Shown in pieces: positions 2,294 to 30,057 of a stretch of DNA of 64,000 bases; positions within the stretch are counted from its first letter, which is position 1, and every line of letters starts with the position of its first letter. The translations under genes and the position numbers were made by a program. The DNA comes from Candidatus Omnitrophota bacterium. Lineage in GTDB: Bacteria > Omnitrophota > Gorgyraeia > Gorgyraeales > Gorgyraeaceae. The stretch is taken from positions 39,984 through 103,983 of the forward strand of contig JBDRJN010000002.1 of NCBI GenBank assembly GCA_043814965.1, read 5' to 3'. Below the pieces are notes generated by a model. The model did not search any database. It saw nothing but the letters and a program-made list of their open reading frames with translations, and was not told the origin of the DNA.

Positions 2294-2869
2294 ATGAAAG
2301 AAGAAGATCAAAAACAAAGAATAAAGGACATAAAAGAGATATCCATCGCGATAGATACGTGGGATGATATCTTCTCGGATTTTGACCCAAGGCCTATGAA
2401 CGAGAGGGCATTGTCAGAGGATTTTAAGTCAGAGATAGCAAAAAGATATAGGGAGACCAGGAAGGGAGATTTTTTAGTCACTATATTTGCCCCAAATTCT
2501 TTAAATGACGGAAAATCCGAGAAGATCGTCATCCAGAGGCTTAAGAGGCATTTCAAGCACAAGGCGATGCAGAGTAAGAAAGAGATCTATGGTATAAGGA
2601 TCAGGGGAGTCTTTTTTGTGATAACCGGGATAATGTTCCTGGGTTTCTTGACGCTCGCAACATACCGCAAGCTTTTTAGAGATTTTACTATAGACATGCT
2701 AGGTATAATACTTTTGCCTCTGGGCTGGTTCGGGGTGTGGGAAGGTTTTTCAAAGATAGTAGATACGTCCATTTCTTTTATACAGGATCAAACCTTGTAC
2801 GATAAGCTCTCCAAAGCAAATTATAGATTTAAATATATAGAGGATGCTCCTAAAAAAGATGCTGTTTAA
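2294..2869 (+). CDS. Hypothetical membrane protein (2 TM helices in the C-terminal half)
   Basis: ORF with hydrophobic segments VFFVITGIMFLGFLTLA and MLGIILLPLGWFGVW. No recognisable family. Confidence 0.5.
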   Translation: MKEEDQKQRIKDIKEISIAIDTWDDIFSDFDPRPMNERALSEDFKSEIAKRYRETRKGDFLVTIFAPNSLNDGKSEKIVIQRLKRHFKHKAMQSKKEIYGIRIRGVFFVITGIMFLGFLTLATYRKLFRDFTIDMLGIILLPLGWFGVWEGFSKIVDTSISFIQDQTLYDKLSKANYRFKYIEDAPKKDAV

Positions 2870-3401
2870 AGAGCTTATATCTAACCGCAGGACACTCAGG
2901 AAATATTCCTCGGAAACTGTTCCGAGAGAAATCATAGACAGATGCCTTGACGCAGCGCGTCTTGCGCCTTCTGCCTGCAACAGCCAGCCATGGTATTTTG
3001 TAGTCATAGATGACGAGGGCTTAAGGAAGCGTGTTGGAGAGGCTGCCTTTTCAGGCGTATATTCTATGAATAGTTTTGCAAGGTCTGCGCCTATATTAAT
3101 AATAGTAGTGAGAGACTGCACAAAATATATAACAAAGCTTGGAGGATTCTTGAGGAAAGTTAATTTTAGCCTTATTGACATAGGTATCTCCTGCCAGAAT
3201 CTTGTTATGCAAGGAGAAGAAGAATCGCTCGGCAGCTGTTACCTGGGGTGGTTTGATGAAAAAAGAGTAAAAGGTATTTTAAATATCCCGAAAAATAAAA
3301 AAATAGACCTAATGATAAGCCTCGGTTACCCTGAAAAAGAAGAAAGGCCCATCAAAGAAAAGCTCCCTCTCGATAAAATAAGGTCCTTTAATAAAATCTA
3401 G
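2844..3401 (+). CDS. Nitroreductase-family flavoprotein
   Basis: RCLDAARLAPSACNSQPWYFVVI is nitroreductase-like, and the C-terminal GYP..E motif fits. The true start may be ATG 2859. Overlaps the upstream ORF. Confidence 0.8.
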   Translation: MLLKKMLFKELISNRRTLRKYSSETVPREIIDRCLDAARLAPSACNSQPWYFVVIDDEGLRKRVGEAAFSGVYSMNSFARSAPILIIVVRDCTKYITKLGGFLRKVNFSLIDIGISCQNLVMQGEEESLGSCYLGWFDEKRVKGILNIPKNKKIDLMISLGYPEKEERPIKEKLPLDKIRSFNKI

Positions 3402-3461
3402 ATCTTACTATATTATAAAGAGCAATAACGAAAACATTTTCGATGTGGATTGGGCACAGTC

Positions 3462-3633
3462 TTTTTTTATTGGTGAGAGTGCCTAGCAAAAAGCCTTTTT
3501 GTTTTGCGAAACACATAGATAATGCACTACAATTTAGATTGCCTGTCAAAACAAAACGGAGCGAAGCCCAACTTTACAAAACACTGATTCTGGCGCAGCG
3601 TCTTTTTGAAAGGCACTCTCACCAATAAAAAAA
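3462..3633. repeat. Structured repeat element, copy A (candidate ncRNA; see copy B at 59221-59340)
   Basis: A 23-bp perfect outer stem (3462-3484 pairs with 3611-3633) encloses a conserved core AAAAAGCCTTTTTGTTTTGCGAAAC..TGCCTGTCAAAACAAAACG. The inner ttttgtttt/aaaacaaaa stem shows compensatory changes in copy B. It lies between convergent genes. Confidence 0.5.
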
Positions 3634-3680
3634 CGAACAAGAGATATCATCTTGAGCGATTATCATCTCGTCCTGTCCGA

Positions 3681-6161
3681 TCAGACTCTTTTCTGTTGGC
3701 TTTCTAGATAGACATCTATGTTATTAATTGGTCTATTTGATGTAAGCTTTAGGAAGGTTTTCTTTTTTATAGGCGTATCTTTTGCGATACGCTCATTTAT
3801 AAGGACCTTTAATACTCTGTATTCTCCAAAATCAAGCCTCTCTGGATTGCGGTAGGTTATGTTTAAGCGCCTATTTAAAAAACTTGTCTCCAGGGAGATG
3901 GTCCCGGATGATTTGAACTGTTCTTTTACTAATTTCGGTTCTATCACAAGGTCTCCCATGTCTCCACGTACCCCGAAGACCTGTGTAATGAGCGTCAGCA
4001 TAAACCAGCTTGCGGAACCAGTAAGGTATGAATACATGCCTCTACCATCACTATTAAAATATTCAGGCAGGCATGGATAGATATTGCTTAGCTTGGTATT
4101 TTTGGACATATTGTATATGGAGTTCAGGACCTCGAAACCTTCTTTTACGAAGGCCCTTTTATATAATGAATAAGCGAACATTACGTTCATGTGGCTGAAA
4201 AACGCGCCATTCTCTTTTTCACCATATGCAAAACTAAACGCTCTTCCAAGCTCAGGATATATATCCTTAAAATCAGTATTAAGCCTGAAGCCTTTAAGGC
4301 CTTTATCCCATAGATATCTTTTAACGCTTTTATATATCTTTTTTATTTTTATAGGCTCTGCCACCCCGCTCATAATGGGGAATACCTGTCCGGTAAGGGT
4401 CATCCTGACGCCTTTTTTATTATTGCCTTCGACTTTCTTTGAAGAGTTGTCGTAGTAGCCATTAAAAAAACTATAGCCTGACTTTACAGTAAGCCACTCA
4501 TTTTTATTTATATTCTTTTTTAATCCTTCAGCTTTTTTTCTGAGCCATGTTATGGTATTTTTTTTATAATTTATCTTTTCAAGAAGGTTCGATAGCTCTA
4601 TCATATTGCCGATATAGGCAGCTGTAAATGCTACGCTCTCGCCATATTTATCAGCCATATCAAGCCCATCGTTCCAGTCGCCCCCCTCCAATAGGAAATT
4701 ACCATGGCGGGATATCTTGGAAAGCTCTCTTTTTATCTCTAGGAGTATATGATCAAGTACAGTATCTTTCTTTTTGCTTTCAAAATAGCCTACTTTTTCG
4801 AAGAGGATGCCAGTGTCCCCTGTCTGATTGATATATAGGTTGAGTGTTATAAACGGCCACAGGCCATGGTCCATCCATATCCTCTTGATATTATTTCTGT
4901 CGGGTATGAATTCCCCTAGTTTTTTGCCTATTATAGTGGCATTTGAACCATCTATACGTACACCCTTGAAGTTATTTAAAAGTATATTCCTGACGTCTCT
5001 GGGTGAGATAAGTAGGAGCGTAAGACAATCCTGCCATAGGTCGCGCCAGCCTCTCCCGCCCCTACCATAATCAAAATCAGGCAGGAATGAACACCCGAAT
5101 ATCTTCCTTAAGGTAGGCTGCAGCATCACCCAGTTTACCCATCTATCGAAATCATTGTCTTTTGTAGAGAGTTTTGCAGAGCTTACTACATTTTTCCAAT
5201 ATTTTTTAGTTGAGGCCAGGCTTGAGCGTATCTTCTGAACGGAGTTATATTTTTTTAATATCTGTATCGGGTCTTTTTTTTGGCTGATGCCAGCTATTGC
5301 TATATAGTAAACTGATCTATCAGGGGAGAGAAGGGTATTTTTAAATTTTAAGGCGCCTATAGCTTCTTTACCTTGCATGTTCTTTATGTCTATTGATTTA
5401 TCTTTGATGAGAGACATGGGCCTTTCCAGGTTTCCGCTTTCCCCAACAAAACTCTCTATTGTAGGATAGATCTTTAAAGGAGTTTTTCCCAGGCCGCTCG
5501 CGCCTAGTACAAAATAAGAGGTGTGGTTTACTTTATGGCCTTTCTCATAAAAGCTCATAGTAGGAGTCACTATGACCCCGTTTTTATGTAATTTTATGCG
5601 GTTCAAAAGAGAACTTACATGCCTATGGTCTCGCAGCCTATCCGCAGAACGAGCGAATATAGGTATAGCTATAGTAGGTTGTATATTTAATCTCTTCCTA
5701 GAGGTATTTGTGATCTTTATTAGCTCTAATTCTACAGCATCATCACTGATCGGCGCAAAATTTGTAAATTCCACTTTAAGCCCTGATCTTTTATTTATCC
5801 TGGTAAGTTTATGGTATAGAAAGCCTCCTTCTACATAGGAATTGGTAACCTCTCCTGACGCAGCTGACCAAAGAGAGTTATTATTTATCATTATCCAGAG
5901 ATTACGGTTGTACCTGGAATCTCTGAGGTCTTCAGTGGATTGGGGCACTGTGAGGAATGAATGTAGGCCTAGTTTTATATCGCCATGCAGCGTAGGGGTA
6001 ATGGATGAAAGCACTCCGTTGGGGCTGCAAAGAGGGAAATAGAGCCTGCTTATCTTATGAGGGTCTTTTGCGATAAAAGTACCTAAATCATCTATAAAGC
6101 GCCAGAAAGGTTTTTTTGAGATATTTTTTTTCATTTTTTTCACCTTTACCATTTTTCCCAA
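3681..6161 (-). CDS. Large glycoside hydrolase/phosphorylase, GH94-like (alpha/alpha)6-barrel family (cellobiose/chitobiose-phosphorylase-like)
   Basis: 826 aa. Motifs RGGRGWRDLWQD and LEGGDWNDGLDMA resemble the GH94 catalytic region. Family assignment is from memory and unverified. Confidence 0.55.
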   Translation of the reverse strand: MGKMVKVKKMKKNISKKPFWRFIDDLGTFIAKDPHKISRLYFPLCSPNGVLSSITPTLHGDIKLGLHSFLTVPQSTEDLRDSRYNRNLWIMINNNSLWSAASGEVTNSYVEGGFLYHKLTRINKRSGLKVEFTNFAPISDDAVELELIKITNTSRKRLNIQPTIAIPIFARSADRLRDHRHVSSLLNRIKLHKNGVIVTPTMSFYEKGHKVNHTSYFVLGASGLGKTPLKIYPTIESFVGESGNLERPMSLIKDKSIDIKNMQGKEAIGALKFKNTLLSPDRSVYYIAIAGISQKKDPIQILKKYNSVQKIRSSLASTKKYWKNVVSSAKLSTKDNDFDRWVNWVMLQPTLRKIFGCSFLPDFDYGRGGRGWRDLWQDCLTLLLISPRDVRNILLNNFKGVRIDGSNATIIGKKLGEFIPDRNNIKRIWMDHGLWPFITLNLYINQTGDTGILFEKVGYFESKKKDTVLDHILLEIKRELSKISRHGNFLLEGGDWNDGLDMADKYGESVAFTAAYIGNMIELSNLLEKINYKKNTITWLRKKAEGLKKNINKNEWLTVKSGYSFFNGYYDNSSKKVEGNNKKGVRMTLTGQVFPIMSGVAEPIKIKKIYKSVKRYLWDKGLKGFRLNTDFKDIYPELGRAFSFAYGEKENGAFFSHMNVMFAYSLYKRAFVKEGFEVLNSIYNMSKNTKLSNIYPCLPEYFNSDGRGMYSYLTGSASWFMLTLITQVFGVRGDMGDLVIEPKLVKEQFKSSGTISLETSFLNRRLNITYRNPERLDFGEYRVLKVLINERIAKDTPIKKKTFLKLTSNRPINNIDVYLESQQKRV

Positions 6162-6643
6162 TGCAGCATCTCTTTAATAGCCTTTTTTGCCTTAGGGCCT
6201 TCCTTAGGGTCTTTGGGGTAACCTACAGATATCATGCTGACGAGTCTATGACCTGAAGGGACATCAAGCATACCCCTTATAGTCTCTACATAGTCTTTTT
6301 TATCCCCAGCTACCCAACACCCTCCCAGGCCTAATGCCTCTATAGCAAGAAGCATGTTTTGTGTAGCAGCGGAGCAGTCTTCTATGTAGTATTTTGTATC
6401 TTTTGAGAATACTGCTATAAGGCATGATGCATCTTTTATAAAAGGCCCGTTCGGGCACATGCCGCATATCTTTTTTAGTATTTTCTTATCATATATTACT
6501 ATAAATTCCCATGGTTGTTCATTCCTTGCTGTGGCAGCAAGGCGGCCCGCGTCTATTATCTGTTCAATAAGAGATTTTTCAACCTTTTTATCAGAATATG
6601 ATCTTACGCTTTTCCTGTTTTTTATTATCTCGAAGAACTCCAT
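6146..6643 (-). CDS. Nitroreductase-family flavoprotein
   Basis: RKSVRSYSD..IIDAGRLAATARNEQPWEFIVI is nitroreductase-like. Overlaps the downstream GH gene by 16 nt, suggesting an operon. Confidence 0.8.
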   Translation of the reverse strand: MEFFEIIKNRKSVRSYSDKKVEKSLIEQIIDAGRLAATARNEQPWEFIVIYDKKILKKICGMCPNGPFIKDASCLIAVFSKDTKYYIEDCSAATQNMLLAIEALGLGGCWVAGDKKDYVETIRGMLDVPSGHRLVSMISVGYPKDPKEGPKAKKAIKEMLHWEKW

Positions 6644-6722
6644 AAAACCCCCTTGTTAGGTCAATGAATTCATTATTTATGGTAGGGAAGGTTTAGACCT
6701 CCCCTACCATAGTTATAGATCG

Positions 6723-7991
6723 TTAAGCTTTATTTAGTTTTGATGTAAACCTTCTTATCTTTTGTATATTCTCACTTGATCTCGGCTCGAGTAATTCAGA
6801 GAATATTGCCTTATTGTGCCATAGTGGGTCAGTGTCCTTTTTTAAGGTGTTGTTCTTTAACATGTTCTTATAATCCATGGTGCCTGGTATAGAGGAATAA
6901 CTTGCCAATACTACCTTTACTCCGAGAGAGTTTATAAATAATATATCTTTCATGGTCTTATCAATATTAAGCCAGTTTGCGCCTATTAATATGTATACGC
7001 CTAAGTCGCTTTTATTGAACCCGGCTTCTCTTAGATTGCGTATAGCCCTCTTTAAGTCTACATTAGTTACCTTTGCTCCTGTAAAGAACTGCAGGTCTTC
7101 ATCAGATGTCTCAAGAGATAATCTGAGTTCCTTGAAATTTGCATGTTTAAATAGATGGGCCAGGTCTTCATCTATGAATCTAGCATGGAGGCCATTCGGT
7201 GTATGGAATGTAAGTTTGCGTCCCGAAGCTATAACCATCCTCAGGAACTTTTTTATGCCAATGCCGCTCTTATAAATAAGGGCGTCATCGTAAAAGACGA
7301 ATTTATCCGTACCAAACGTATTATGATAATGCATGACCTCTTCAAATAGGTCTACAGGGTCTTTTAACATGAACCCTCCTGATATCATCCTGGATGCGCA
7401 GTAACTGCATCTAAAAGGACAGCCCTGAGTGAGCTGTATCGGGAGCATGTTTCTTTCAAATAATAGGTCGTAAGCTGGATAAAAACCTTTTTTAAAGAAG
7501 TAGTCTCTTTCGAGGTAATCTTTTTCCCATATAATATCTGCGCCACTATGTAGGGAGGCGTGTCTGGGGGAGAGCGTAGCGTATATGCCGCCAAGCGTGA
7601 TCTTTATATCTTTAAAATATTCTCTTAATGATTTTATAGTAAGTTGTACCCCAGGATACCAGTATGTCATGCCTGATGTAACAAATATCTCATCAATATC
7701 CTTTAAGGCGTTTAGTTTGTTTTTAAACTCCTCTATGGATATACCGTATCTAAAATAAGGCCTTTTAATGTCTTTTATAGTATCTGGTTTATCAACATTC
7801 TCTTTTCTGATCTTTGAGAAACCAAATTCGTCTTTACTCCTTCCGCAGTTCTCAAGGCAATCTACAAGATAGACGCGGCTGCCATCTCTACGCAGCGCCT
7901 CTCCTATACGTAGTAGCCCTATTGGCTTTATGCCGTAGTCGTGAGCAGCAAAATCATATATCCAAGGGTTTACAAGAAGGACTTTTCTCAT
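6723..7991 (-). CDS. B12-binding (class B) radical SAM enzyme
   Basis: N-terminal B12-binding-like fold (LLVNPWIYDF..). Radical SAM cluster QGCPFRCSYCAS (CxxxCxxC). Confidence 0.8.
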   Translation of the reverse strand: MRKVLLVNPWIYDFAAHDYGIKPIGLLRIGEALRRDGSRVYLVDCLENCGRSKDEFGFSKIRKENVDKPDTIKDIKRPYFRYGISIEEFKNKLNALKDIDEIFVTSGMTYWYPGVQLTIKSLREYFKDIKITLGGIYATLSPRHASLHSGADIIWEKDYLERDYFFKKGFYPAYDLLFERNMLPIQLTQGCPFRCSYCASRMISGGFMLKDPVDLFEEVMHYHNTFGTDKFVFYDDALIYKSGIGIKKFLRMVIASGRKLTFHTPNGLHARFIDEDLAHLFKHANFKELRLSLETSDEDLQFFTGAKVTNVDLKRAIRNLREAGFNKSDLGVYILIGANWLNIDKTMKDILFINSLGVKVVLASYSSIPGTMDYKNMLKNNTLKKDTDPLWHNKAIFSELLEPRSSENIQKIRRFTSKLNKA

Positions 7992-8365
7992 GTCATATTA
8001 TGTTATCATGATAGAATTTTAAAGGCAAGATTTAAGTCTCACAAAAGCATAGATCATTATAACCATAGCAAGACTTCCCTATAAGCTCAGGTGAAATTTT
8101 TCCCGAGTCCCGAAGTCTCTAGACTCGGGGCCGTCTTTTAAGGAGGTATTTTATATAGGGCTAAAAAAACTCGTCGCTAATATATATAGCAGGCTCAGAC
8201 AGTTTTTAGCCTATATTTAAAAGCTAAAATACTATTAATGAAAGACTAAACTTTCAATTTGCTTATATGGAAGCCTTACTATGGTTTATGGGTTTATTGC
8301 ATGTTTTTGGCTGAGCGTCTTTTTGAAGAGCTTCTGTCAGTCAAGAACAATAAGCAGCATAATTA

Positions 8366-9709
8366 TTAAAGGCTGGGATTTAAAGTAAGAGCTAATTCTT
8401 TCCACATGGATATGTGTTCCATACATAGGTATATTGGAAGGTCCTTGGAGTGTTTTCTCAAGGCTTCGAGTATCTTTTCATATATCGATCTTCTTAGCGC
8501 ATAAGGATACCTTAGCTTATTATCAAAACCTTTCAGGAGTTCTCCGTCGAGGATGGTATTATACGGGAAGCGTTTTTCAATAGTTGTCTTTACCTTTGGG
8601 TTGAACCTTAAGGTCCCTATACTGATCCATGCTATGTGTTTTGGCTTTATCCTGGAGAATAGGGCATCTATGAGTTTTTTATATTCTTTTTCCCATCCAA
8701 TAAAATATATCACTGGATCAAAATGTATACCTATCTTGTAACCTGCCTGAGCGCATAGTGCCATGGCCTCAAGCCTTTCCGAAAGAGAGGATGCGGAGAA
8801 TTCATTTTCATCGATCATCTTTTGAGGGTTGAGCGACCAGGAGGCTACTATATTGCCTGCATGCCGGGCGTTTAATAGATTTTTTATATTTTTGCTCTTT
8901 GTCTTAAATTCAAAACGGATGTTCGTATGGTCTTTAAAAAAATCTATTATATGGAGGGAGTATCCTGTTATATCATCGAGCATCAGGGAATCAGAAAATT
9001 CGCCTGTACCTATGCGCATACGACATTTTTTAAAGCCCTTGAAGCTATCAAAGAACTTATCAAGGTTTGACGGGAATATGATGCCAGGCGTATTTGTATA
9101 TTCCTGGAGGTAGCAGTAAGTGCAGTCATATATACACCCAAAGCTCAGGTTGAATATATTGTACCCGCAGCATACAGCTTTTTTTGTACAGGGGCATCTT
9201 TTAAAAAGATCATGCATCTCGTTGGTGATAAATACAGTATCAAGCCTTTTATTGTAGTCTTTTATCGAGAATCTCTTGTTGTGCTCCAAATAGCTCTTGA
9301 GGGAAGGGATCATCTTTATGCTAGACTCGGAAAATGCTTTTTTAAATGAATTTGCTAGCGAAGAGTCCGAGGATGCTTCTTCGATAAGTATATCTTTTGG
9401 ATAAAAGTGTTTTTCGGGTTTAGCTATAGAGCCCGGATCAAGTTCTAACTTTGGAAGGTGCGCATTTAACTCCCTATTAAGATATCCCTGAGGGAAACGT
9501 GTTTTAAGAAGGATATCTTTTATCTTGTGGAAGTCTTTTGTTTCAATACTGCTTAGGATATTGGATGGTTTGCGTGAATCCCTTTTTGATATCTCAAAAA
9601 CAAGCCTTACAAGTTCCTGGGCCTTGTTTACGCCGAGAGCTGGGAAGTCTTTTGATATGAGCTTTTTAATATCTTTTAAGAGCTCGATATTTTTTGTATG
9701 AACTTCCAT
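8366..9709 (-). CDS. Radical SAM protein, SPL-like family (spore-photoproduct-lyase/COG1533-like)
   Basis: CxxxCxxC in GCIYDCTYCYLQ, with extra upstream Cys (CPCTKKAVCCGYN). 447 aa. Confidence 0.7.
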   Translation of the reverse strand: MEVHTKNIELLKDIKKLISKDFPALGVNKAQELVRLVFEISKRDSRKPSNILSSIETKDFHKIKDILLKTRFPQGYLNRELNAHLPKLELDPGSIAKPEKHFYPKDILIEEASSDSSLANSFKKAFSESSIKMIPSLKSYLEHNKRFSIKDYNKRLDTVFITNEMHDLFKRCPCTKKAVCCGYNIFNLSFGCIYDCTYCYLQEYTNTPGIIFPSNLDKFFDSFKGFKKCRMRIGTGEFSDSLMLDDITGYSLHIIDFFKDHTNIRFEFKTKSKNIKNLLNARHAGNIVASWSLNPQKMIDENEFSASSLSERLEAMALCAQAGYKIGIHFDPVIYFIGWEKEYKKLIDALFSRIKPKHIAWISIGTLRFNPKVKTTIEKRFPYNTILDGELLKGFDNKLRYPYALRRSIYEKILEALRKHSKDLPIYLCMEHISMWKELALTLNPSL

Positions 9710-10395
9710 ATAAGGTCCAGTGAGAGTGATATAGAGCCCGAGAGCCTATCTTTTTCTTTACCTTCCAGCGGCACGTAAAATGGTTTTACATTTATGATAT
9801 CTGTTATATAAAAAAGCGCCATGGCGTTTAATCCAGCTTTACTGGCTGCAGAAAATAACGCAGAGCATTCCATATCTACGACGTCTATACCAAGAGAGCT
9901 GAATCTATCAATATAACCTTCTTCTAGAAGAAGGGAAGCCAGTGTAGCGCATGTGACTTTTTTGATAGATGATGAAATGTTATCTTCCAGGAATTTTTCT
10001 GAGAGCTCTCTATCAGGGTAGAACATCTTCGGGCCTTCAATGTCATTTAAGAGCATGTCGCTGAAGCTTTCAAATGCATAGCATTTATCAGGCATTACGA
10101 GGCTTGCTACATCTAAGTCGGGCGTTTTTTGTGTAAGGCCGCACGAGCCCAGTATTATTACGTTTTTGCATCCTGTGTTTTTTAGGTGCAGTACGCAATC
10201 ACCAGTCAGGGATGGGCCTATGCCAGTATGTATTACAGTAGAGAACTTATTCTCTGCAGATGAATATATCTTACCTCTTGAAAAATTTGTTATGTTGAAC
10301 TTTTTTAGGAGATCTTTTGGTATAAGGGGAAGGAGGATGCACGTGTCTTTGACCTGGGAACTATCTATGCCAAATAAGGCCTTGAATTTATTCAT
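9676..10395 (-). CDS. PNP_UDP_1-family nucleosidase, MTA/SAH (5'-deoxyadenosine) nucleosidase-like
   Basis: VIILGSCGL, VVDMECSALF and ALFYITDII match E. coli Pfs motifs (INTGSAGG, AVEMEATAIA, VVVRAISDV). A DeoD/MqnB-type function cannot be excluded. Confidence 0.65.
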   Translation of the reverse strand: MNKFKALFGIDSSQVKDTCILLPLIPKDLLKKFNITNFSRGKIYSSAENKFSTVIHTGIGPSLTGDCVLHLKNTGCKNVIILGSCGLTQKTPDLDVASLVMPDKCYAFESFSDMLLNDIEGPKMFYPDRELSEKFLEDNISSSIKKVTCATLASLLLEEGYIDRFSSLGIDVVDMECSALFSAASKAGLNAMALFYITDIINVKPFYVPLEGKEKDRLSGSISLSLDLIWKFIQKISSS

Positions 10396-11468
10396 AATTC
10401 AATAAGATTGTAATCTATGTTACCCAGGCCTATTTTGTGCGCGTATTCAAAGATCTTTTTATATGAGTTTCCCGGGCGTTCTTTTAGTATCACGTCACCA
10501 GCTTTATTCATGATATCTATAGTTGCTTTGTCCATGCTTAATATGTCGCGCGAGGCGATTATGCCTATATCATCCGATATCATGGGCTCATCCTTAGTGG
10601 ATATACAGTCGCATTCTTTGGTTATATCGAATGCAAAATTTATAAATAGCTTGTTTTTGAACTTTGATAGTATGAACTTTGCTACATCAACAGTCCTTTT
10701 GATAAATATATCGACATCCTCGTGCCAGTTTACGCCTATTGCATCGAATTTGCAGGCGCAGAGGCATTCTCCACAGCCAACGCATATAGATCTATCTATA
10801 GCAGCCTTAGAGGTGTCTTTGTCCGAAGTTATTGCGTTTACTGGGCATATTTTTATGCATAAGCCGCAGGCAGTACACTTTTTTTGTATCACCTGTGGTT
10901 TTAGCGAAGAATGCTGGATCTGTTTTGTGGATTTCGAGGACATGCCCATAGCGACATTTTTGATACCAGCTGCAAATCCAGAGAGTATGTGACTAGTGAC
11001 ATGGGAAAGGACTACAACGCTATCGACCATGCCTATAAAAGATGGGATCTTGACCTTTTTTATGTATTCCGAGTCTATGTCATAGGTCGATCCATCCTGG
11101 CCAAAGAGGCCGTCAGCTATTATAAATGGGGCGCCTATCCTGGAATGTGAAAATCTTTTATTTAAGGCCAGTGTCAAGTGGTCTACTGCATTAAGGCGGG
11201 AGCCCTTATATATGACATTTGTATCAAATAAGAATGGTTTTGCTTTTTTATCTTTTATGTCCGATATGACCAGTTTTACGAGCTCCGGGTCGACGTGATA
11301 TACGCATTCGCTGTCGCCTATAGTGATCTTTACAGGCACGAATTCGTCCTTTTTGTAGGCTATCTCAGGGCCTAATGCCTCTAGTAGTTTTAAAAGACAA
11401 TTCCTGCGTGACTGTAAGTCCTTGCCGTTAGATCTAACAAAATAAACCTTGCTTTTCATAGTAGTCAT
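10392..11468 (-). CDS. DUF362-domain protein with a C-terminal 2x[4Fe-4S] ferredoxin domain
   Basis: Two CxxCxxCxxxCP motifs (CTACGLCIKICPVNAI and CVGCGECLCACKFDAI). The N-terminal 200 aa are DUF362-like. Confidence 0.7.
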   Translation of the reverse strand: MTTMKSKVYFVRSNGKDLQSRRNCLLKLLEALGPEIAYKKDEFVPVKITIGDSECVYHVDPELVKLVISDIKDKKAKPFLFDTNVIYKGSRLNAVDHLTLALNKRFSHSRIGAPFIIADGLFGQDGSTYDIDSEYIKKVKIPSFIGMVDSVVVLSHVTSHILSGFAAGIKNVAMGMSSKSTKQIQHSSLKPQVIQKKCTACGLCIKICPVNAITSDKDTSKAAIDRSICVGCGECLCACKFDAIGVNWHEDVDIFIKRTVDVAKFILSKFKNKLFINFAFDITKECDCISTKDEPMISDDIGIIASRDILSMDKATIDIMNKAGDVILKERPGNSYKKIFEYAHKIGLGNIDYNLIEL

Positions 11469-11569
11469 TTTATTCCTATCGTGTTCTTAACTGGAGAGGC
11501 TTTTCAAAAAGACGTTCGGCCTATATTGTAATTTGTAAATGTGGGCCTCACCAGTGTTTATATATACTA

Positions 11570-11595
11570 GTAGGGGAGCTTTAAAGCTCCCCTAC
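11570..11595. repeat. REP-like perfect palindromic hairpin GTAGGGGAGCTTTAAAGCTCCCCTAC (copy 1 of the family)
   Basis: 26-nt perfect palindrome. It sits in a 130-bp element also seen at 16881-16995. A second 9-bp hairpin lies at 11639-11661. Confidence 0.6.
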
Positions 11596-11713
11596 TAAAG
11601 AAAAGGTTTAGGCGAGAGCGAAAAAGAAAATAGAGTAACCCTGCACCATACTGGTGCAGGGCACGCTGGTGAAATTTAACGTTCTCGAAAACAGCGCTTG
11701 CCCGCAGACAAGG

Positions 11714-12562
11714 TTAATATCTTTTATACTTATTGTCAAAATAAGCATCGAGCTTATGTATGTATATATTGTGATCTTTGCCAGAGGACTTTGCCTCTTT
11801 TTTGATGCTTTCCTCGATATTATACCAGAAAGAAGTGTAATAGTCTTTATCTTTTGAGAGCTTGGCGTAATTATCCTTTAATTCAGGATAGATGCCTACT
11901 ATGGCAGTTATTATATTTTTTATGTTTCCCACCATAAAATTCAACCCTTCAAACTCAACTGCTCTTGCCTTGGGAAATCTTGTAAATATGCCGCTAATAT
12001 CTGATACATAAGGCAGGATCGGAGAAAAGTACGGCGTGACATTGATGCCTTTTTCCAGAAGTCCATTTATAGCATTAAATCTATCTACATATTCAGGGCT
12101 TTTTGCCTCCAAGACATTTTTAAGCATAAAAGGGATGTTATTTATAGTAAAATATATATTTTTACAGAACCCTTGAGAAAGAAGGCCTGTGTATTCTGCT
12201 ATATAATTTGAACGCGTGAGGATGTTGTAATATACACCGTATCTATTTAATATCTCAAGGACCTGTTTTGTTATCCTATATTTTTTTTCAATATCCTGGA
12301 AGCAATCAGTGGTGGAGCCCAGGAGTACGCATTTTGGTTTTTTGAGGAGTATTTCTTTTTCAAGCAGTCTTGGCGCATTTACTCTTATATCAACATAGCT
12401 TCCCCAGGTCTCTTTTTTCTTTGATATGACTTTATTGTGCCTTACATAGCAATAAAGGCATGAATACTCGCATCCCATATATGGGTTTATGACGTATTCC
12501 CCGAGGTCTATGGAGGTCGGGTTAAGTATCCTGGATATCTTTACAGTATTAAAATCCGTCAT
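11714..12562 (-). CDS. Radical SAM protein, SPL-like family
   Basis: MGCEYSCLYCYVRHN (CxxxCxxC). 282 aa. Overlaps the upstream B12-radical SAM gene by 4 nt. Confidence 0.7.
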   Translation of the reverse strand: MTDFNTVKISRILNPTSIDLGEYVINPYMGCEYSCLYCYVRHNKVISKKKETWGSYVDIRVNAPRLLEKEILLKKPKCVLLGSTTDCFQDIEKKYRITKQVLEILNRYGVYYNILTRSNYIAEYTGLLSQGFCKNIYFTINNIPFMLKNVLEAKSPEYVDRFNAINGLLEKGINVTPYFSPILPYVSDISGIFTRFPKARAVEFEGLNFMVGNIKNIITAIVGIYPELKDNYAKLSKDKDYYTSFWYNIEESIKKEAKSSGKDHNIYIHKLDAYFDNKYKRY

Positions 12563-13869
12563 TTTTCTATCAGGTTGCCCAAAAAGGCGTTTGTGTACTT
12601 AAAGCCATGTCTTTTTATCTCGCTTACAAAATATTCATACCTTTTTATTGCAATACCATTGGTCGAATTGCCTGAACTTTTCTTAAGAGGGGTTCCTTCA
12701 TAGTAAGTAAAAGGGTTTATCTGTTCTATCTTTGGTATAAGAGTTTTATTTTTTATCAAAAATTCCAGGCTTTCCTCAAAGTCTTTTTCTGTCTCTCCTG
12801 GGTAGCCTGTTATCATGCTTATGCCAAATCTTAAGCCAGCATCCTGCAGATCCTTAAAGAATATCACCGCATCGCTGGTAGTAAAACCCTTATTCATATT
12901 CAGCAATGTACGATCACACCCTGACTCAAGTCCTACAAAGAGATTATAGCATCCGCTTTTTTTTATTTTTTCGAACAACTCTTTAGGCATATCTTTTCTT
13001 ATACATATCTGCGCTTCCCATGGGATGGATCTAAAATTTCTAATGATCTCTTCGGAAAGTCCGTCAAGTTTTCCTAGGTCAGCATTTATCATAGAGTCAT
13101 TGAATACAAAATTCCGCGCTATTTTATTATGAAGCTTGTGATATTCGACCTCATCCATGAGGCTTTCTATAGATCTTGCCCTAAATCTTTTATAAAGCAG
13201 GCGCTCGGAACAAAAAGAGCATTTTTTAATACACCCCCTTGATAAAAGGAGAGATATAGTTTTTTTTGGGTAACTAGATATGTCAATAGAGCGGTATTTT
13301 GGAAAGCTTGCGTCATCCAGGCACTTTAGTTCTTTAAAGCAGGATGTTTCATTAGTAGCGTTGTCAGGCCCTTTTATAAGGTCAAATAGCGAAAGCTCTC
13401 CTTCGCCAACCACGATATGGTCTACAAGGTTTTTTATTTCTTCAGGGAATGAGCCATTGTATTTAAAGAATAGCCTAGCTATCTCTGGCCCGCCGAGTAT
13501 TATCTTTGTAAGAGGCTTTTTTGATCTTATAAACTTTATTATTTTTATAGTCGATGAGAAATTACTTTTAAAACATGAAAACCCTATTATATCGCAGGAG
13601 AGGAGCTTATTTATAACATCATCGAACTTTTCAGGAAAATCTTTCTCTAGGAGAGACAGGATATTTTTTTCTAAAGCAGAATTACAGCTTATTGACCAGT
13701 CTTTTTTTAGGCTGCCAGAGGCCAGGTTATAAAATATATTATTTATATCCAGGATATCCGCATGAATGCCTTTTTCGATCAAAAAACTTTCAAGATAAGA
13801 TAGCCCCAGAGGCGGCATCATAGGATAGAAAACAGGAAGTATCGTGAGTAATATCTTTTGCTGGGCCAT
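12559..13869 (-). CDS. B12-binding (class B) radical SAM enzyme
   Basis: N-terminal B12-binding-like region. LLSRGCIKKCSFCSE (CxxxCxxC). Confidence 0.8.
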   Translation of the reverse strand: MAQQKILLTILPVFYPMMPPLGLSYLESFLIEKGIHADILDINNIFYNLASGSLKKDWSISCNSALEKNILSLLEKDFPEKFDDVINKLLSCDIIGFSCFKSNFSSTIKIIKFIRSKKPLTKIILGGPEIARLFFKYNGSFPEEIKNLVDHIVVGEGELSLFDLIKGPDNATNETSCFKELKCLDDASFPKYRSIDISSYPKKTISLLLSRGCIKKCSFCSERLLYKRFRARSIESLMDEVEYHKLHNKIARNFVFNDSMINADLGKLDGLSEEIIRNFRSIPWEAQICIRKDMPKELFEKIKKSGCYNLFVGLESGCDRTLLNMNKGFTTSDAVIFFKDLQDAGLRFGISMITGYPGETEKDFEESLEFLIKNKTLIPKIEQINPFTYYEGTPLKKSSGNSTNGIAIKRYEYFVSEIKRHGFKYTNAFLGNLIEK

Positions 13870-13889
13870 ATTTTATTGTAAAGGAAGGA

Positions 13890-15278
13890 TTAATTAGCGG
13901 AGTTATTATTTAACCAAAAAGGCTCGCCATTGTGTATATCAACTATATCCAGCGCGACCTTTACTATGTCTTTATCATATTTTGTGCCAGCATGGTCAGT
14001 GATCTCTTTTACAGCTTTATTGATCCCAAGAGCAGCTCTATATGGCCTATGGAATGTCATTGCCTCCAACACATCAGATATAGCAAGTATCCTTGCCTCT
14101 GGTATAATATCTTTTCCTGAAAGCCCCCTTGGGTACCCCTCGCCGTTTAGCCTTTCATGATGCTGGTATATAGCTTCTGGAAGAGGGAATGGGAATGTAT
14201 GGGGTTTAAGCATATCATAGCACTTTATTACATGTTCTCGTATCATCTCGTGTTCTAGCTTGGAAAGTATACCAGGTTTGTTGAGTATCTCAAGAGGAAT
14301 AAGTATTTTTCCTATATCATGCAGTTCCGCAGACATCTTTAACTCAAGTATCTTGTTTTCATCCCAGCCCATTGCCTGAGCTATTCTTTCAGCTATTATT
14401 GATACACGTCTAGTGTGTCCGAACGTATAAGGGTCTCTTATCTCAAGGACCTTATCAAGCACTTTTAGAGAGGTCACTACTATATTAAGGCGGCTTTTTT
14501 CCATCTTGTCATACGCAGTGATGTCTCTAGTGATACCCATAGTCCCTATGATAGTGCCGCGCTTATTGTGTATAGGTATCTTTGTGGTAGTAACGCAGTT
14601 ATAAGTGCCGTTTGGAAGAAGTGTGCGTTCGATCTTGCCTATGATAAGTTTTCCGGATTTAAGTACATATGTATCATCCTCGAACATTAACTTGGCCTGT
14701 TCTTTAGGGAAGAAATCAAAATCAGTCTTGCCCATGAGCTCTTCAGGCCTTTTCTTGAAACCATTAGCGTAAAAACGGTTCACTCTTATCAGCCTATTTT
14801 TATTGTCCTTAAAATATACTGCATCAGGCAGGTTATCAAGGAGGTTTTGAAAAAGCTCTTTTTCAAACGCGAAACTTTCTTCAAGCTGTTTGTGATCGGA
14901 TATATCTTCTATGACGCCTTCAAGGCAAAGATATCGGCTGTCATAAGGTGATTCTGTCACATACGCAGTAATGCCTACCCAGACATCTTTTCTGTCTTCC
15001 CTGATGAATTTTGCCTCATATAGCCTTACGATCTTTTCTTTCTTGAGGATATTAAAGAATATATTTGCGTCCTTCTGATGTTTAAAGAGGGACTTAAATG
15101 TAAGTTGTTGTATCTTGTCATCGGAGGAAAAACCCAGGATCTTGCTAAGGCTTGAATTTATAGCAAGAAACTTTTCATTAGGGGATAGCTGGTATCTAAA
15201 TAGACACAACCCTAACTTATCAGCTGTAGAGAACTTAAGATAAAACTTGTCTTTTCCTTTGGATTTGACTTTGATCAT
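13890..15278 (-). CDS. PAS-sensor HD-GYP c-di-GMP phosphodiesterase
   Basis: HDIGKILIP and HHERLNGEGYP (HD and GYP motifs). Two PAS-like segments in the N-terminal half. Confidence 0.75.
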   Translation of the reverse strand: MIKVKSKGKDKFYLKFSTADKLGLCLFRYQLSPNEKFLAINSSLSKILGFSSDDKIQQLTFKSLFKHQKDANIFFNILKKEKIVRLYEAKFIREDRKDVWVGITAYVTESPYDSRYLCLEGVIEDISDHKQLEESFAFEKELFQNLLDNLPDAVYFKDNKNRLIRVNRFYANGFKKRPEELMGKTDFDFFPKEQAKLMFEDDTYVLKSGKLIIGKIERTLLPNGTYNCVTTTKIPIHNKRGTIIGTMGITRDITAYDKMEKSRLNIVVTSLKVLDKVLEIRDPYTFGHTRRVSIIAERIAQAMGWDENKILELKMSAELHDIGKILIPLEILNKPGILSKLEHEMIREHVIKCYDMLKPHTFPFPLPEAIYQHHERLNGEGYPRGLSGKDIIPEARILAISDVLEAMTFHRPYRAALGINKAVKEITDHAGTKYDKDIVKVALDIVDIHNGEPFWLNNNSAN

Positions 15279-15365
15279 AGTGTATAATATATTAACATAT
15301 AGATAGCACCAAAGTAAAGTAAAATATAATATTATTTATAATATTTGTAGTAGTAAATGATCGTA

Positions 15366-15391
15366 GTAGGGGAGCTTTAAAGCTCCCCTAC
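15366..15391. repeat. REP-like palindromic hairpin GTAGGGGAGCTTTAAAGCTCCCCTAC (copy 2)
   Basis: Identical 26-nt palindrome, in the divergent intergenic region between the HD-GYP and pyruvate kinase genes. Confidence 0.6.
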
Positions 15392-15467
15392 TACCCCCTA
15401 CATTGTGGTTAGAATTGTCAGATTGGAATATAGTGTATCATATTAAATATAAAGGAGTTATAAACAT

Positions 15468-16478
15468 ATGGTAAAGACAAAGATCATCTGTACTCTTGGC
15501 CCAGCTAGCTCAAATGAGACAATTATAAGAAAAATGACGCTTTCCGGCATGGATGTAGCGAGGCTTAATTGCTCGCATGGGACATCTAAGAGCCAGGTAT
15601 CCAATATTGAGCTTGTAAGGAAGGTAAATAAAAAGTATAAAAGGGCTGTAAAGGTCCTTTTGGACCTCGAAGGCCCGAGGATAAGGATAGGGGACCTTAA
15701 GGATAAAAAACCCATATTACTTAAAAAAAGAGAGAGGTTCTATCTCTCAAAAAATAAAATTCACTCGGGAAATGTCATACCTTTTGACTATAAAGGCCCT
15801 CTTGATAGCATTAAAAAGGCGGAGTTTATCTATATTGATGACGGTAATATCATATTAAGAGTAAGATCTATTGATAAAAATAACGTAAAAGTAGAAGTGG
15901 TGATCGGCGGCATCTTAAAAGAGCATAAGGGTGTAAATATCCCCGGCGCAAGACTCGAGTTCCCTGTAATAAGCGAAAAAGATAAGCTGGATATTGAATT
16001 TGGAAATTCTTTTTTTGTCGACTATATTGCCCAGTCTTTTGTAAGAAATAAATTAGATGTATTGGAGCTTAAAAAAAGGATAAATTCTAAATCCGGGCCT
16101 CTAGTGATATCCAAGATAGAAAACCAGGATGGAGTAAAAAATATCGATTCGATCATAGATGAATCCGACGGCATAATGATAGCAAGGGGCGATATGGGAG
16201 TATCCCTACCTATATATAAAGTCCCGATCATACAAAAAGAGATCATTAAAAAGTGTAATAAGAAAAAAAAGTTTGTCATCACTGCTACACAGATGCTTGA
16301 GAGCATGACAGAGCATCTCCGCCCGACGAGGGCAGAAGTGACTGACGTTGCAAATGCGATAATAGACGGCACTGATTTTGTGATGCTATCAGGCGAAACA
16401 GCTATCGGCAAATACCCGGTAGAGTCAGTAAAAATGATGAATGATATCATCAAATTCACAGAGAAGCCTATCAAGTAG
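15468..16478 (+). CDS. pyk: Pyruvate kinase (barrel domains only; C-terminal alpha/beta domain absent)
   Basis: [25 protein letters not shown] is a PK signature. SD AAGGAG at 15451. The ORF ends after about 336 aa, where the C-terminal domain normally begins. Confidence 0.8.
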
Positions 16479-30007: not shown

Positions 30008-30040
30008 GGTCACAGGTAATGTATTGTGACCCTTTTTTAT
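30008..30040 (+). terminator. Rho-independent terminator of the giant gene
   Basis: ggtcaca (30008-30014) pairs with tgtgacc (30025-30031), followed by TTTTTT (30033-30038). It lies 26 nt after stop 29982. Confidence 0.6.
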
Positions 30041-30057
30041 TGTGTTATAATATCTCC

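Follow-up and report, generated by a model that had tools for sequence, protein, structure and literature searches.

A Co-Conserved Five-Gene Radical SAM Module with a Probable Nucleoside Hydrolase in Candidatus Omnitrophota

Introduction

The combination of a radical SAM enzyme and a nucleosidase in two consecutive steps has precedents in the MqnE/MqnB, HpnH/HpnG and QueK/QueL systems (PMC13459092; PMC11570991). The first pair comprises aminofutalosine synthase and futalosine hydrolase, and the second adenosylhopane synthase and a PNP-like nucleosidase, with the GT2 HpnI and the B12-type radical SAM HpnJ alongside. In both systems, an enzyme of the PNP_UDP_1 fold removes the purine from the radical SAM product. 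QueK and QueL, of queuosine salvage in C. difficile, are a nucleoside hydrolase and a radical queuine lyase, which act on the same modified nucleoside or its base. Here we describe a locus of an uncultured Candidatus Omnitrophota where a small nucleosidase-like gene of the nucleoside-phosphorylase fold (NP-I) overlaps that of a radical SAM enzyme resembling spore photoproduct lyase (SPL), which repairs DNA.

Layout of the Locus

The window, a 64-kb stretch of DNA, was analysed through its ORFs and their Pfam and NCBIfam domain calls, which confirmed the eight co-oriented minus-strand genes at 3681-13869, with overlaps of 4-34 nt and a 374-bp gap, that an earlier note had described. The features of the region are:

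12559-13869, minus strand: B12-type radical SAM 'a', 436 aa; Pfam B12-binding (35.2 bits, cutoff 32.1) and Radical_SAM
11714-12562, minus strand: small radical SAM of the SPL superfamily, 282 aa; Radical_SAM; closest in NCBIfam to PA0069, Rv2578c and mobile-pair-B
10392-11468, minus strand: DUF362 protein, 358 aa; inserted 2x[4Fe-4S] domain
9676-10395, minus strand: NP-I nucleosidase-like enzyme, 239 aa; PNP_UDP_1
8366-9709, minus strand: SPL-like radical SAM, 447 aa; SPL family
6723-7991, minus strand: radical SAM 'b', 422 aa; Radical_SAM; N-terminal B12-binding-like domain, sub-threshold at 24.8 bits (cutoff 32.1)
6146-6643, minus strand: small nitroreductase-family flavoprotein, 165 aa; Pfam Nitroreductase 1.1e-26
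3681-6161, minus strand: GH94 phosphorylase, 826-aa ORF; GH94
13890-15278, minus strand: PAS-PAS-HD-GYP gene; Pfam HD_5 1.2e-40 and PAS domains
11638-11662, minus strand: terminator-like hairpin; 11-bp stem with 7 GC pairs, T-rich tail

Overlaps of 4 nt join the gene of B12-type radical SAM (B12-rSAM) 'a' to the 282-aa gene and the DUF362 gene to that of the NP-I enzyme, which in turn shares 34 nt with the SPL-like gene downstream of it. The 16-nt overlap of the nitroreductase and GH94 ORFs becomes an 11-nt gap with the GH94 start of the NCBI record (817 aa, about position 6134). Two gaps, of 245 and 374 bp, interrupt the cluster, the former following the 282-aa gene and containing the hairpin, which is the best terminator-like candidate of the region. 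Spacing varies among relatives, being only 2-3 bp in loci L003 and L005 (the 245-bp gap is 2 bp in L003), and no conserved precursor peptide was found in a search of the two gaps, where the note had suggested looking for a small ORF. The PAS-PAS-HD-GYP gene, likely encoding a c-di-GMP phosphodiesterase-type regulator to judge by its domains, abuts the cluster as a ninth co-oriented gene, and lies upstream in 14/15 closest-clade loci, 2/13 of the next tier and 0/20 distant ones.

None of the eight genes reaches an NCBIfam curated cutoff, an outcome that includes the subfamily HMM assignment of the radical SAM genes and agrees with the earlier statement that the cluster matches no described pathway. 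Searches for a riboswitch, a defence-system match or a known-pathway match likewise found none for the gene cluster. Since the 64 kb of the window contain six radical SAM genes, the adjacency of such genes is by itself weak evidence here.

Conservation of the Five-Gene Module

The comparison of gene neighbourhoods covered 80 loci from genomes and 80 from metagenomes. The pair formed by the NP-I and SPL-like genes is present across Omnitrophota, Elusimicrobiota and Auribacterota. In the genome loci, which include unrelated flanks and several phyla, the SPL-like gene has nearby the NP-I gene in 51/72 cases, the DUF362 gene, upstream of the pair, in 31/64, the 282-aa gene in 15/60 and B12-rSAM 'a' in 12/53. 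From the side of the nucleosidase, the SPL-like gene or the B12-rSAM/282-aa pair adjoins NP-I in 41 of the 45 metagenomic loci with flanks, so that the proposed tie of NP-I to these radical SAM genes holds: the SPL-like gene is adjacent in 30, the B12-rSAM/282-aa pair is found instead in 10 more, and of the 15 loci lacking an adjacent SPL-like gene, four have no radical SAM gene of these kinds in the neighbourhood. The NP-I/SPL overlap, 34 nt in the window, measures 31 nt in L001 and 25 nt in L003. In every case, distant loci included, the 282-aa gene is partnered with an upstream B12-rSAM gene, and it also accompanies NP-I where SPL is not adjacent. A GT2 glycosyltransferase follows the SPL-like gene in six loci, and a PP-loop ATPase, a TadA-like deaminase and a Macro domain protein are occasional neighbours.

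The five-gene core, of which the SPL-like gene is the core gene, is co-conserved beyond chance, as it turns up in many genomes whose flanks differ; the module is uncharacterised and corresponds to no described pathway. The single multi-step radical pathway first proposed survives as a multi-enzyme radical SAM module conserved across phyla, but not with all eight genes, as the nitroreductase and GH94 are confined to the closest clade.

The Enzymes of the Module

The NP-I enzyme scores 22.6 bits with the MTAN model (cutoff 161) and is no nearer to MTA nucleosidase than to the purine and uridine phosphorylases. It keeps Glu176 and Asp199, and is probably hydrolytic because the equivalent of Arg87, the phosphate-binding Arg, is lost. 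From these residues it is probably a nucleoside hydrolase, and it forms an orphan clade that is very small, with 180 clusters at 50% identity. Its role may be either the clearance of by-product 5'-deoxyadenosine or the processing of a pathway intermediate.

The SPL-like enzyme has 22% identity with SPL and scores 119 bits against an equivalog cutoff of 400. At its N-terminus, about 100 aa form an additional helical domain, and it has four further invariant Cys (C172, C174, C181 and C429), suggestive of a second metal site (Cys4). The position of the SPL H-donor, Cys140, is occupied by an invariant Glu, and the thymine-binding Arg193 and Glu268 of SPL are replaced by Ser/Ala/Gly and by Gly, respectively. 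On account of these replacements, the extra Cys and the added domain, an identity of the 447-aa enzyme as SPL was rejected. Its Arg368, which corresponds to SPL Arg273, is conserved, and a CxxxCxYCY motif is common to the 447-aa and 282-aa enzymes. To our knowledge, neither adenosylation nor nucleoside lyase chemistry is known for any SPL-family member.

In the DUF362 protein, the Pfam DUF362 domain spans residues 46-318 and Fer4 residues 190-245, which places the ferredoxin inside the larger domain as an insert, the only part with PDB matches. DUF362 is uncharacterised, with a Pfam clan in common with the LarA N-terminal domain. To read the protein as a simple electron-donor ferredoxin says too little, since DUF362, of the LarA clan, has the size of an enzyme domain. 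The 282-aa enzyme scores 100 bits with TIGR04470 (cutoff 410) and 94 bits with NF033668 (cutoff 360), and B12-rSAM 'a' has best NCBIfam matches of at most 100 bits against cutoffs of at least 360, with MgmA (9ccb, 1.2e-11) as its top PDB match.

Radical SAM 'b', Nitroreductase and GH94

Two class-B radical SAM enzymes had been claimed for the cluster; 'a' exceeds the B12-binding threshold, whereas 'b' stays below it. Radical SAM 'b' (Pfam Radical_SAM 9.8e-20), for which no PDB relative was found, is not a close paralogue of 'a'. It directly follows the SPL-like gene in L005, L027, L031 (Auribacterota) and L122. Where the block is inverted (L003, L024 and L025), it moves together with the nitroreductase, and it is thus loosely associated with both the core module and the nitroreductase group.

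The GH94 protein aligns with the laminaribiose phosphorylase of PDB 6GGY over residues 19-790 (E 3.4e-236), the catalytic DWNDGLD segment included; the label 'GH94-like' was right about the family but understated this closeness. By this alignment, the gene is taken to encode a laminaribiose-phosphorylase-type catabolic enzyme. The nitroreductase adjoins GH94 in nearly all loci with a full GH94 gene, and is near the core in 14/14 loci of the closest syntenic clade, 1/13 of the next tier and 0/15 distant ones, the figures for GH94 being 13/14, 2/13 and 0/14. Within the closest clade, where pyruvate kinase and FBP aldolase are also held in synteny, the position and orientation of both genes are variable. 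GH94 has more than 7200 homologues; in the distant ones whose neighbourhoods were inspected, no nitroreductase or radical SAM neighbours were found, and unrelated genes lie there instead. GH94 is thus a neighbour outside the radical module, the nitroreductase is probably outside it as well, and GH94 as a hint of a glycosylated product is not supported.

A Three-Unit Model and Its Alternatives

Tentatively, and with somewhat less than even confidence, we propose three adjacent units rather than an eight-gene pathway, with NP-I and the SPL-like enzyme acting in sequence on one nucleoside-type substrate. Unit 1 (8366-13869) would be the conserved radical SAM module, with the translationally coupled NP-I and SPL-like pair as its nucleus; gene coupling and analogy suggest that both enzymes act consecutively on the same molecule. 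The SPL-like enzyme, through its [4Fe-4S]/SAM site and probably the Cys4 site, would use the 5'-deoxyadenosyl radical to act on a base or ribose other than spore photoproduct, and NP-I, in which the ribose-binding Glu and the catalytic Asp are retained, would cleave an N-glycosidic bond hydrolytically. The DUF362/2x[4Fe-4S] protein may supply or consume electrons, and B12-rSAM 'a' and the 282-aa enzyme may carry out accessory tailoring, e.g., C-methylation. Unit 2 (6723-7991) would be radical SAM 'b', with loose ties to unit 1 and to the nitroreductase, and unit 3 (3681-6643) the nitroreductase and the laminaribiose-type phosphorylase, presumably devoted to sugar catabolism and placed nearby by lineage-specific synteny. 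Against this proposal, the hairpin divides unit 1 in this genome, NP-I stands without an adjacent SPL-like gene in 15/45 loci, and in several genomes 'b' connects unit 1 with unit 3, so that a wider functional link is possible.

NP-I could instead be a dedicated hydrolase of inhibitory 5'-deoxyadenosine, and of SAH for the B12 enzyme, with a non-nucleoside radical substrate, a reading that follows the role given to NP-I in the earlier note and that we consider rather unlikely. Radical SAM enzymes are inhibited by 5'-dAdo (PMC8102628; PMC6079011), and SAM cleavage could be the common denominator of the 41/45 loci in which NP-I adjoins the SPL-like gene or the B12-rSAM/282-aa pair. An association with several radical SAM genes would be equally expected of such a by-product nucleosidase, and the Asp and Glu of NP-I are common to MTAN and PNP, with the phosphate-binding Arg missing as in hydrolases. 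However, NP-I scores far below the MTAN cutoff and is no nearer to MTAN than to UP/PNP. Its small clade goes with the same handful of radical SAM families rather than with such genes in general, the other radical SAM genes of the window have no NP-I beside them, and a conserved overlap of 25-34 nt with one particular enzyme points to partners that work in stoichiometric amounts. It is quite improbable that both SPL-superfamily enzymes act on DNA or RNA bases while NP-I recycles an excised or damaged nucleoside: the replaced lesion-binding residues and H-donor Cys argue against it, as do the free nucleosides or nucleotides, not polymers, used by NP-I enzymes, although SPL is the sole characterised member of the fold and Arg368 matches the Arg273 that contacts SAM and the lesion phosphate. 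PA0069 and Rv2578c, to which the 282-aa enzyme is closest among named families, are LexA/SOS genes, but this enzyme scores far below their cutoffs, and the PP-loop ATPase, deaminase and Macro domain protein belong to a heterogeneous set of neighbours. As far as we know, spore or UV biology is not expected in these anaerobes either.

We give little credence to one eight-gene pathway for building or modifying a carbohydrate-containing product. The genes are co-oriented and tightly packed, 'b' provides a chain of association between SPL and the inverted nitroreductase, and the GT2 gene follows SPL in six loci; nevertheless, the nitroreductase and GH94 are absent from distant SPL loci and belong to one clade with glycolytic genes nearby, the laminaribiose-phosphorylase-type GH94 stands alone in other lineages, block spacing and orientation vary, and the cluster contains a terminator-like site and unconserved gaps. 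A chance grouping of unrelated genes is barely credible: the genome is rich in radical SAM genes (the six in 64 kb) and close relatives keep long-range synteny including housekeeping genes, but the same five families occur together in distant genomes of several phyla, with different flanks and rearranged orders.

Comparison with Known Systems

Compared with SPL (SplB, Geobacillus thermodenitrificans 4FHC), the SPL-like enzyme occurs in non-sporulating candidate phyla and has an NP-I partner in most genome loci, which SPL lacks. The GH94 protein matches the Paenibacillus sp. laminaribiose phosphorylase (6GGY) in full length and has both the GH94 supersandwich and the catalytic domain; it is about 90 residues shorter and set apart by its tight pairing with the small nitroreductase in this clade.

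As in HpnH/HpnG and MqnE/MqnB, a radical SAM enzyme goes here with a PNP_UDP_1-fold enzyme, and B12-type radical SAM genes, with GT2 in six loci, recall the Hpn system. The radical SAM partner, however, has the SPL fold and not that of the HpnH or MqnE/ThiH type, and adenosylation as by HpnH is only putative for it. Genes of the module reach 20 bits with the HpnG model (cutoff 187) and 89 bits with that of HpnJ (cutoff 578), the HpnH and futalosine hydrolase models match none of them, and no squalene-hopene cyclase or other mqn gene lies near the module. QueK/QueL follow a similar two-gene logic, but QueK is an IUNH-family hydrolase (IPR023186), QueL carries only the generic radical SAM entry IPR006638, and no preQ1 riboswitch, transporter or tgt gene was found near the module; one Omnitrophica genome encodes QueC, QueD, QueE and QueF, of de novo synthesis. 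Finally, Pfs/MtnN, the MTA/SAH/5'-deoxyadenosine nucleosidase, has the NP-I fold, the ribose-binding Glu and the catalytic Asp in common with the probably hydrolytic enzyme described here.

Gene Content of the Cluster

In this window, which derives from a metagenome-assembled genome of Candidatus Omnitrophota, eight co-oriented ORFs occupy the minus strand at 3681-13869, and our own ORF calls gave coordinates identical to those of the earlier note, where these genes had been described from the sequence alone. The domain content proposed there matches our Pfam and NCBIfam domain calls, and the same overlaps (4, 4, 34 and 16 nt) and gaps (245 and 374 bp) were obtained. With the GH94 start of the NCBI record, the protein has 817 aa and the 16-nt overlap with the nitroreductase becomes a short gap.

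Genes of the cluster (window positions, strand, assignment from domain calls)
13890-15278, PAS-PAS-HD-GYP protein, a ninth co-oriented gene abutting the cluster
12559-13869, minus, B12-binding radical SAM enzyme 'a'
11714-12562, minus, 282-aa radical SAM enzyme, nearest NCBIfam families PA0069, Rv2578c and 'mobile pair B'
10392-11468, minus, DUF362 protein with an inserted 2x[4Fe-4S] domain
9676-10395, minus, PNP_UDP_1 nucleosidase-like protein (NP-I)
8366-9709, minus, SPL-family radical SAM enzyme of 447 aa (SPL-like)
6723-7991, minus, radical SAM enzyme 'b', B12-binding match sub-threshold
6146-6643, minus, nitroreductase
3681-6161, minus, GH94 protein

None of the cluster's proteins reaches a curated NCBIfam cutoff for any model, and memberships in hopanoid, futalosine, BzaD, PhpK, ladderane or MCR-methylase systems were rejected, all the scores lying far under the cutoffs. 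The enzyme 'a' has the domains of a class B radical SAM protein (PF02310 at 35.2 bits for a cutoff of 32.1, PF04055 at 63.7 bits), reaches no named equivalog cutoff and finds its best solved relative in MgmA (1e-11). Its counterpart 'b', which is not a close paralogue, shows a clear radical SAM core and a PF02310 match of 24.8 bits (E 2e-5), under the 32.1 cutoff; no relative was found for it among PDB structures. Between the 282-aa and the 447-aa enzymes, the cluster motif is the sole common sequence feature. DUF362 is an uncharacterised domain of the same Pfam clan as the N-terminal domain of LarA; matches of the DUF362 protein to solved structures cover the ferredoxin insert only, and a literature search on DUF362 function found nothing.

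At the other end of the cluster, the GH94 protein contains supersandwich and catalytic domains (PF17167, 140.8 bits; PF06165, 30.1 bits) and aligns over residues 19-790 with the laminaribiose phosphorylase 6GGY (E 3.4e-236), conserving the catalytic-Asp segment DWNDGLD, which classes it as a predicted laminaribiose-phosphorylase-type enzyme. A second gene of the nitroreductase family (2844-3401, plus strand) converges on GH94, and the same order of GH94 followed by an opposite-strand nitroreductase occurs in four loci of relatives (L016, L017, L022 and L047). Thus, two nitroreductase paralogues flank GH94 in the closest clade, for no evident reason.

A search of the two intergenic gaps for a small precursor-peptide ORF had been suggested as a check, and it returned only unconserved ORFs of 29-67 aa. 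Moreover, each gap is absent in a relative: the 282-aa gene and DUF362 stand 2 bp apart in locus L003, and in L005 the SPL-like gene and 'b' are separated by 3 bp. A RiPP cluster was discarded on the lack of a conserved precursor ORF, the vanishing of the gaps in relatives and the absence of any protease or transporter gene. Inside the 245-bp gap, at 11662-11638, lies a terminator-like hairpin, the strongest one in the region. Rfam searches at E<=1 over window positions 3000-16000 gave no family, apart from one sub-threshold match to SprD, and at gathering thresholds 20 related loci gave tRNA and rRNA only. A role in anti-phage defence was also rejected, since PADLOC offered just weak generic radical SAM matches to candidate PDC families and left the SPL-like enzyme, NP-I and the DUF362 protein without a match. 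Our literature search on Omnitrophota found nothing on this gene cluster.

Conservation of the Neighbourhood

We aligned 26 homologues of the 447-aa protein and, with this alignment, searched one genome for each GTDB species, which revealed 277 stretches with a relative of the SPL-like enzyme. The best 80 of these 277 loci were fetched with flanks of up to 10 kb, and their ORFs were scored against nine window proteins. The hosts of these 80 loci are Omnitrophota, Elusimicrobiota (including Endomicrobium), Auribacterota, Erginobacter and a few differently labelled MAGs, and the SPL-like family keeps 44-63% identity across phyla.

Genes around the SPL-like gene (position, loci with the gene among loci with sufficient flank)
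NP-I, directly upstream, 51/72; anywhere in the locus, 59/72
DUF362, upstream, 31/64
282-aa radical SAM, upstream, 15/60
B12-radical SAM 'a', upstream, 12/53
PAS-HD-GYP, upstream, 16/48
Radical SAM 'b', downstream inside the flank, 9/42
Nitroreductase, downstream inside the flank, 15/42
GH94, downstream inside the flank, 15/41

The nitroreductase and GH94 genes are confined near the SPL-like gene to its closest relatives. Sorted by tier of relatedness (closest, next and distant), the former is found in 14/14, 1/13 and 0/15 loci, and the latter in 13/14, 2/13 and 0/14. Within the closest clade the nitroreductase-GH94 block, with 'b' if present, follows the SPL-like gene directly, stands 1-7 kb away or is inverted (L003, L024 and L025). 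The conserved synteny of this clade also holds pyruvate kinase, class II fructose-bisphosphate aldolase and radical SAM-DUF6873 genes, as well as deoxyhypusine-synthase-like and agmatinase-like ones, and co-location there is therefore a poor guide to function. The order 'a', 282-aa, DUF362, NP-I and SPL-like, on the other hand, was found again in distant genomes whose flanking genes are unrelated (L037, L039, L042, L043 and L053). Conservation of the neighbourhood therefore holds for these five genes, and for the nitroreductase and GH94 in the closest relatives only. Homologues of GH94 in other lineages (46-51% identity) have no nitroreductase or radical SAM gene beside them, and this gene is independent of the radical module.

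Several additional genes accompany the cluster in relatives. A GT2 glycosyltransferase follows the SPL-like gene in six loci, and a PP-loop ATPase (PF01171, ~241 aa), not present in the window, stands between PAS-HD-GYP and 'a' in L003 (5351-6076), L011 (5332-6075) and L023. Many relatives carry a divergent gene set between the SPL-like gene and 'b' (L003 11288-14442; downstream of the SPL-like gene in L009, L011 and L014). Its members are a membrane polyferredoxin (Fer4_5, ~483 aa), a DUF362 protein and, in six loci, TatC, for which other genes stand in elsewhere. A representative of this second DUF362 protein starts with what, by eye, resembles a twin-arginine signal. The set is absent from the window and from L005, and the unconserved 374-bp gap (7992-8365) may be the scar of its deletion.

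The neighbourhood was also examined from the side of the nucleosidase. The NP-I family profile detected 216 relatives in metagenome contigs, of which 80 loci were fetched and 45, those with at least 1 kb on each side, were counted. The SPL-like gene is directly downstream in 22/45 and divergently upstream in 8/45, whereas ten loci lack an adjoining SPL-like gene and have the 'a'/282-aa pair; one more has DUF362 alone, and four have none of the module genes. This makes NP-I a hub around which the same few radical SAM families gather, and both groups contain an enzyme of the SPL superfamily. The NP-I and SPL-like genes overlap by 34 nt in the window, 31 nt in L001 and 25 nt in L003, which suggests translational coupling. 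Where the pair occurs bare, in Elusimicrobiota and elsewhere, its neighbours are heterogeneous (AsmA, DUF2062, ValRS, Maf, aldo-keto reductase, Sir2, PilZ, Macro, TadA-like and YgjP) and showed no functional theme. In a few metagenome contigs NP-I is retained and the SPL-like gene is gone or replaced by ORF fragments of ~105 aa (L088 3480-4500, L092 3243-3700 and L097 2504-3300), which may reflect gene decay or faulty assembly.

The rest of the window offers its own observations. The cluster is flanked by genes for a pyruvate kinase with the barrel domain only (336 aa; 15468-16478, plus) and a class II fructose-bisphosphate aldolase (17102-18076, plus), both syntenic with it in close relatives, and by one for an amino-acid permease that carries a fused PTS EIIA-2 domain (177-2024, plus). 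A single ORF of 3811 aa (18547-29982, plus), Pfam-less at E<=1e-4, is set in DNA of strongly positive GC skew; Omnitrophota are known to encode giant proteins (bioRxiv 10.64898/2026.06.07.730766). Six radical SAM genes occur in these 64 kb, including one with Radical_SAM_C and DUF6873 domains (30019-31572, plus) and a third B12-binding one with DUF4070 (36623-37939, plus). A PFL-like glycyl radical enzyme is also encoded (41406-43616, plus), for which a 247-aa ORF (43603-44346) could be the activase.

Active Sites of the SPL-Like Enzyme and the Predicted Nucleosidase

The SPL-like enzyme has both the three-dimensional fold of spore photoproduct lyase (SPL; PF20903) and the radical SAM CxxxCxxC cluster, but stays far from the SPL equivalog models (TIGR04070, 118.9 bits for a cutoff of 400; TIGR03886, 53.5 bits for 437.6). 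It was aligned with HMMER to the Geobacillus thermodenitrificans SPL, taking residue roles from Benjdia et al. and conservation from 80 family members. In that SPL, Lys174, Ser195 and Arg273 bind SAM, Cys140 is the H-atom donor, and Arg193 and Glu268 bind the thymine (PMC3467042). The SAM binders are kept as Lys271 (80/80), Ser292 (78/80) and Arg368 (80/80), whereas the H-atom donor (Cys140/141) is replaced by Glu237, a Glu in 79/80, and the lesion-base binders by Ser/Ala/Gly290 and by Gly365 (80/80). With scaffold and SAM site in common but these active-site residues replaced, the family is predicted to be incapable of the known SPL reaction, the repair of 5-thyminyl-5,6-dihydrothymine in spore DNA. 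Four extra cysteines, C172, C174 and C181 (80/80) and C429 (79/80), form a putative second metal site, and Pfam found nothing in the N-terminal 186 residues, even at E<=10. Spore formation is not known from Omnitrophota or Elusimicrobiota, the phyla of the host MAGs.

The NP-I family profile gave DeoD-type PNPs as top matches (7e-12). Met175-Glu176, the ribose-binding pair, and the catalytic Asp199 are invariant, and the position of the phosphate-binding Arg87 of DeoD is occupied by Phe or Leu, so the protein is predicted to be a hydrolase and not a phosphorylase. Although catalytic Asp, ribose-binding Glu and lack of a phosphate site recall the MTA/SAH/5'-dAdo nucleosidase Pfs/MtnN (MTAN), these features are common to other NP-I hydrolases; the protein scores 22.6 bits against the MTAN model NF005522 (cutoff 161), and its structure resembles MTAN no more than it does the rest of the NP-I family. 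The clade is small: at E<=1e-30, a set of 1.84 billion proteins yielded 180 clusters (50% identity), whose members all measure ~230-250 aa. The 150 best representatives include no fusion protein, and database names are 'hypothetical' or generic PNP.

A Possible Nucleoside-Directed Radical Module

Gene content, conservation hierarchy, active-site differences and both the identity and the independence of GH94 are established by the analysis, and the function that we infer starts from the fixed overlapping pairing of NP-I with the SPL-like gene. As this pairing mirrors MqnE/MqnB, HpnH/HpnG and QueK/QueL, we favour sequential action: by analogy, the two enzymes would act one after the other on a single nucleoside-type substrate, with the DUF362/2x[4Fe-4S] protein as redox partner and the 'a' and 282-aa radical SAM pair in accessory steps. 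The whole of this scheme is advanced tentatively, at a little under an even chance. With more reserve, the module might be a new two-enzyme radical pathway of Omnitrophota, Elusimicrobiota and relatives, built on an auxiliary-Cys4 SPL-superfamily enzyme, an orphan nucleosidase and a DUF362 redox partner. The SPL-like enzyme would then carry out on a nucleoside a chemistry new to the family (5'-deoxyadenosyl addition, C-C lyase or rearrangement), after which the orphan NP-I would free the base or a modified ribosyl product.

The main rival is that NP-I merely clears 5'-dAdo/SAH. Its hub-like association with radical SAM families agrees with such a task. The small and specialised clade suits it less well, and so do the lack of any particular likeness to MTAN and the absence of such a gene next to the remaining radical SAM genes of the window; we consider this explanation rather unlikely. 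More improbable is a role in nucleic-acid repair or modification. PA0069 and Rv2578c, the named families nearest to the 282-aa protein, are LexA/SOS genes and speak for it, but that protein scores far under the cutoffs of both. The earlier note had joined all eight genes into one radical pathway with a carbohydrate or glycosylated substrate or product. The observation of the cluster was confirmed and its interpretation supported in part. The reading of all eight genes as one route to a glycosylated product does not stand up, and we now hold it very improbable, even with 'b' linked to both the SPL-like gene and the nitroreductase in several genomes. For genome mining, the lesson is that in lineages rich in radical SAM genes and strong in synteny, an orderly run of co-oriented genes can be pieced together from unrelated units.

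The new two-enzyme pathway considered above, if true, would supply a first function both for an SPL-fold protein other than SPL and for the NP-I clade, and would give the DUF362/2x[4Fe-4S] protein, as redox partner, its first functional assignment. The SPL superfamily has one biochemically understood member, and here we find a large and strongly conserved sister family in 277 species-representative genomes, whose constant partner enzyme restricts the likely substrates to nucleoside-like molecules. Solving this module, a well-defined target for enzymology with no mechanistic surprise so far, could provide DUF362 proteins and the orphan NP-I clade with a first function and expose a conserved metabolism of uncultured Omnitrophota and Elusimicrobiota, including the reduced Endomicrobium symbionts.

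Comparison with Known Systems

Among known systems, MqnE/MqnB and HpnH/HpnG perform a radical SAM adenosylation followed by base removal (PMC13459092), and QueK/QueL combine a nucleoside hydrolase with a radical lyase (PMC11570991), the same logic as the pairing described here. The proteins of the hopanoid module are nevertheless distant, with HpnG (TIGR03468) at 20 bits against 187, HpnJ (TIGR03471) at 89 against 578 and no match to HpnH, and no cyclase gene appears in the examined neighbourhoods. Queuosine salvage by QueK/QueL was rejected as well, the likeness being one of logic only: QueK is of the IUNH type (IPR023186) and the hydrolase here of the NP-I family, while QueL is assigned just the generic radical SAM entry IPR006638. 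Rfam matched no preQ1 riboswitch in the window region or the 20 loci, and a Q-precursor transporter gene is likewise missing from the cluster. One Omnitrophica contig (JAQTLW010000001.1; L166 1-1993) carries QueF, a QueE-like radical SAM, QueC and QueD (PTPS) in a row, so at least this genome is capable of de novo preQ1 synthesis, an argument against obligate queuine salvage by the NP-I/SPL-like pair. Altogether, the module is of the radical SAM plus nucleosidase kind, its partners being an SPL-fold enzyme and a protein of an orphan NP-I clade, and is widespread in candidate phyla.
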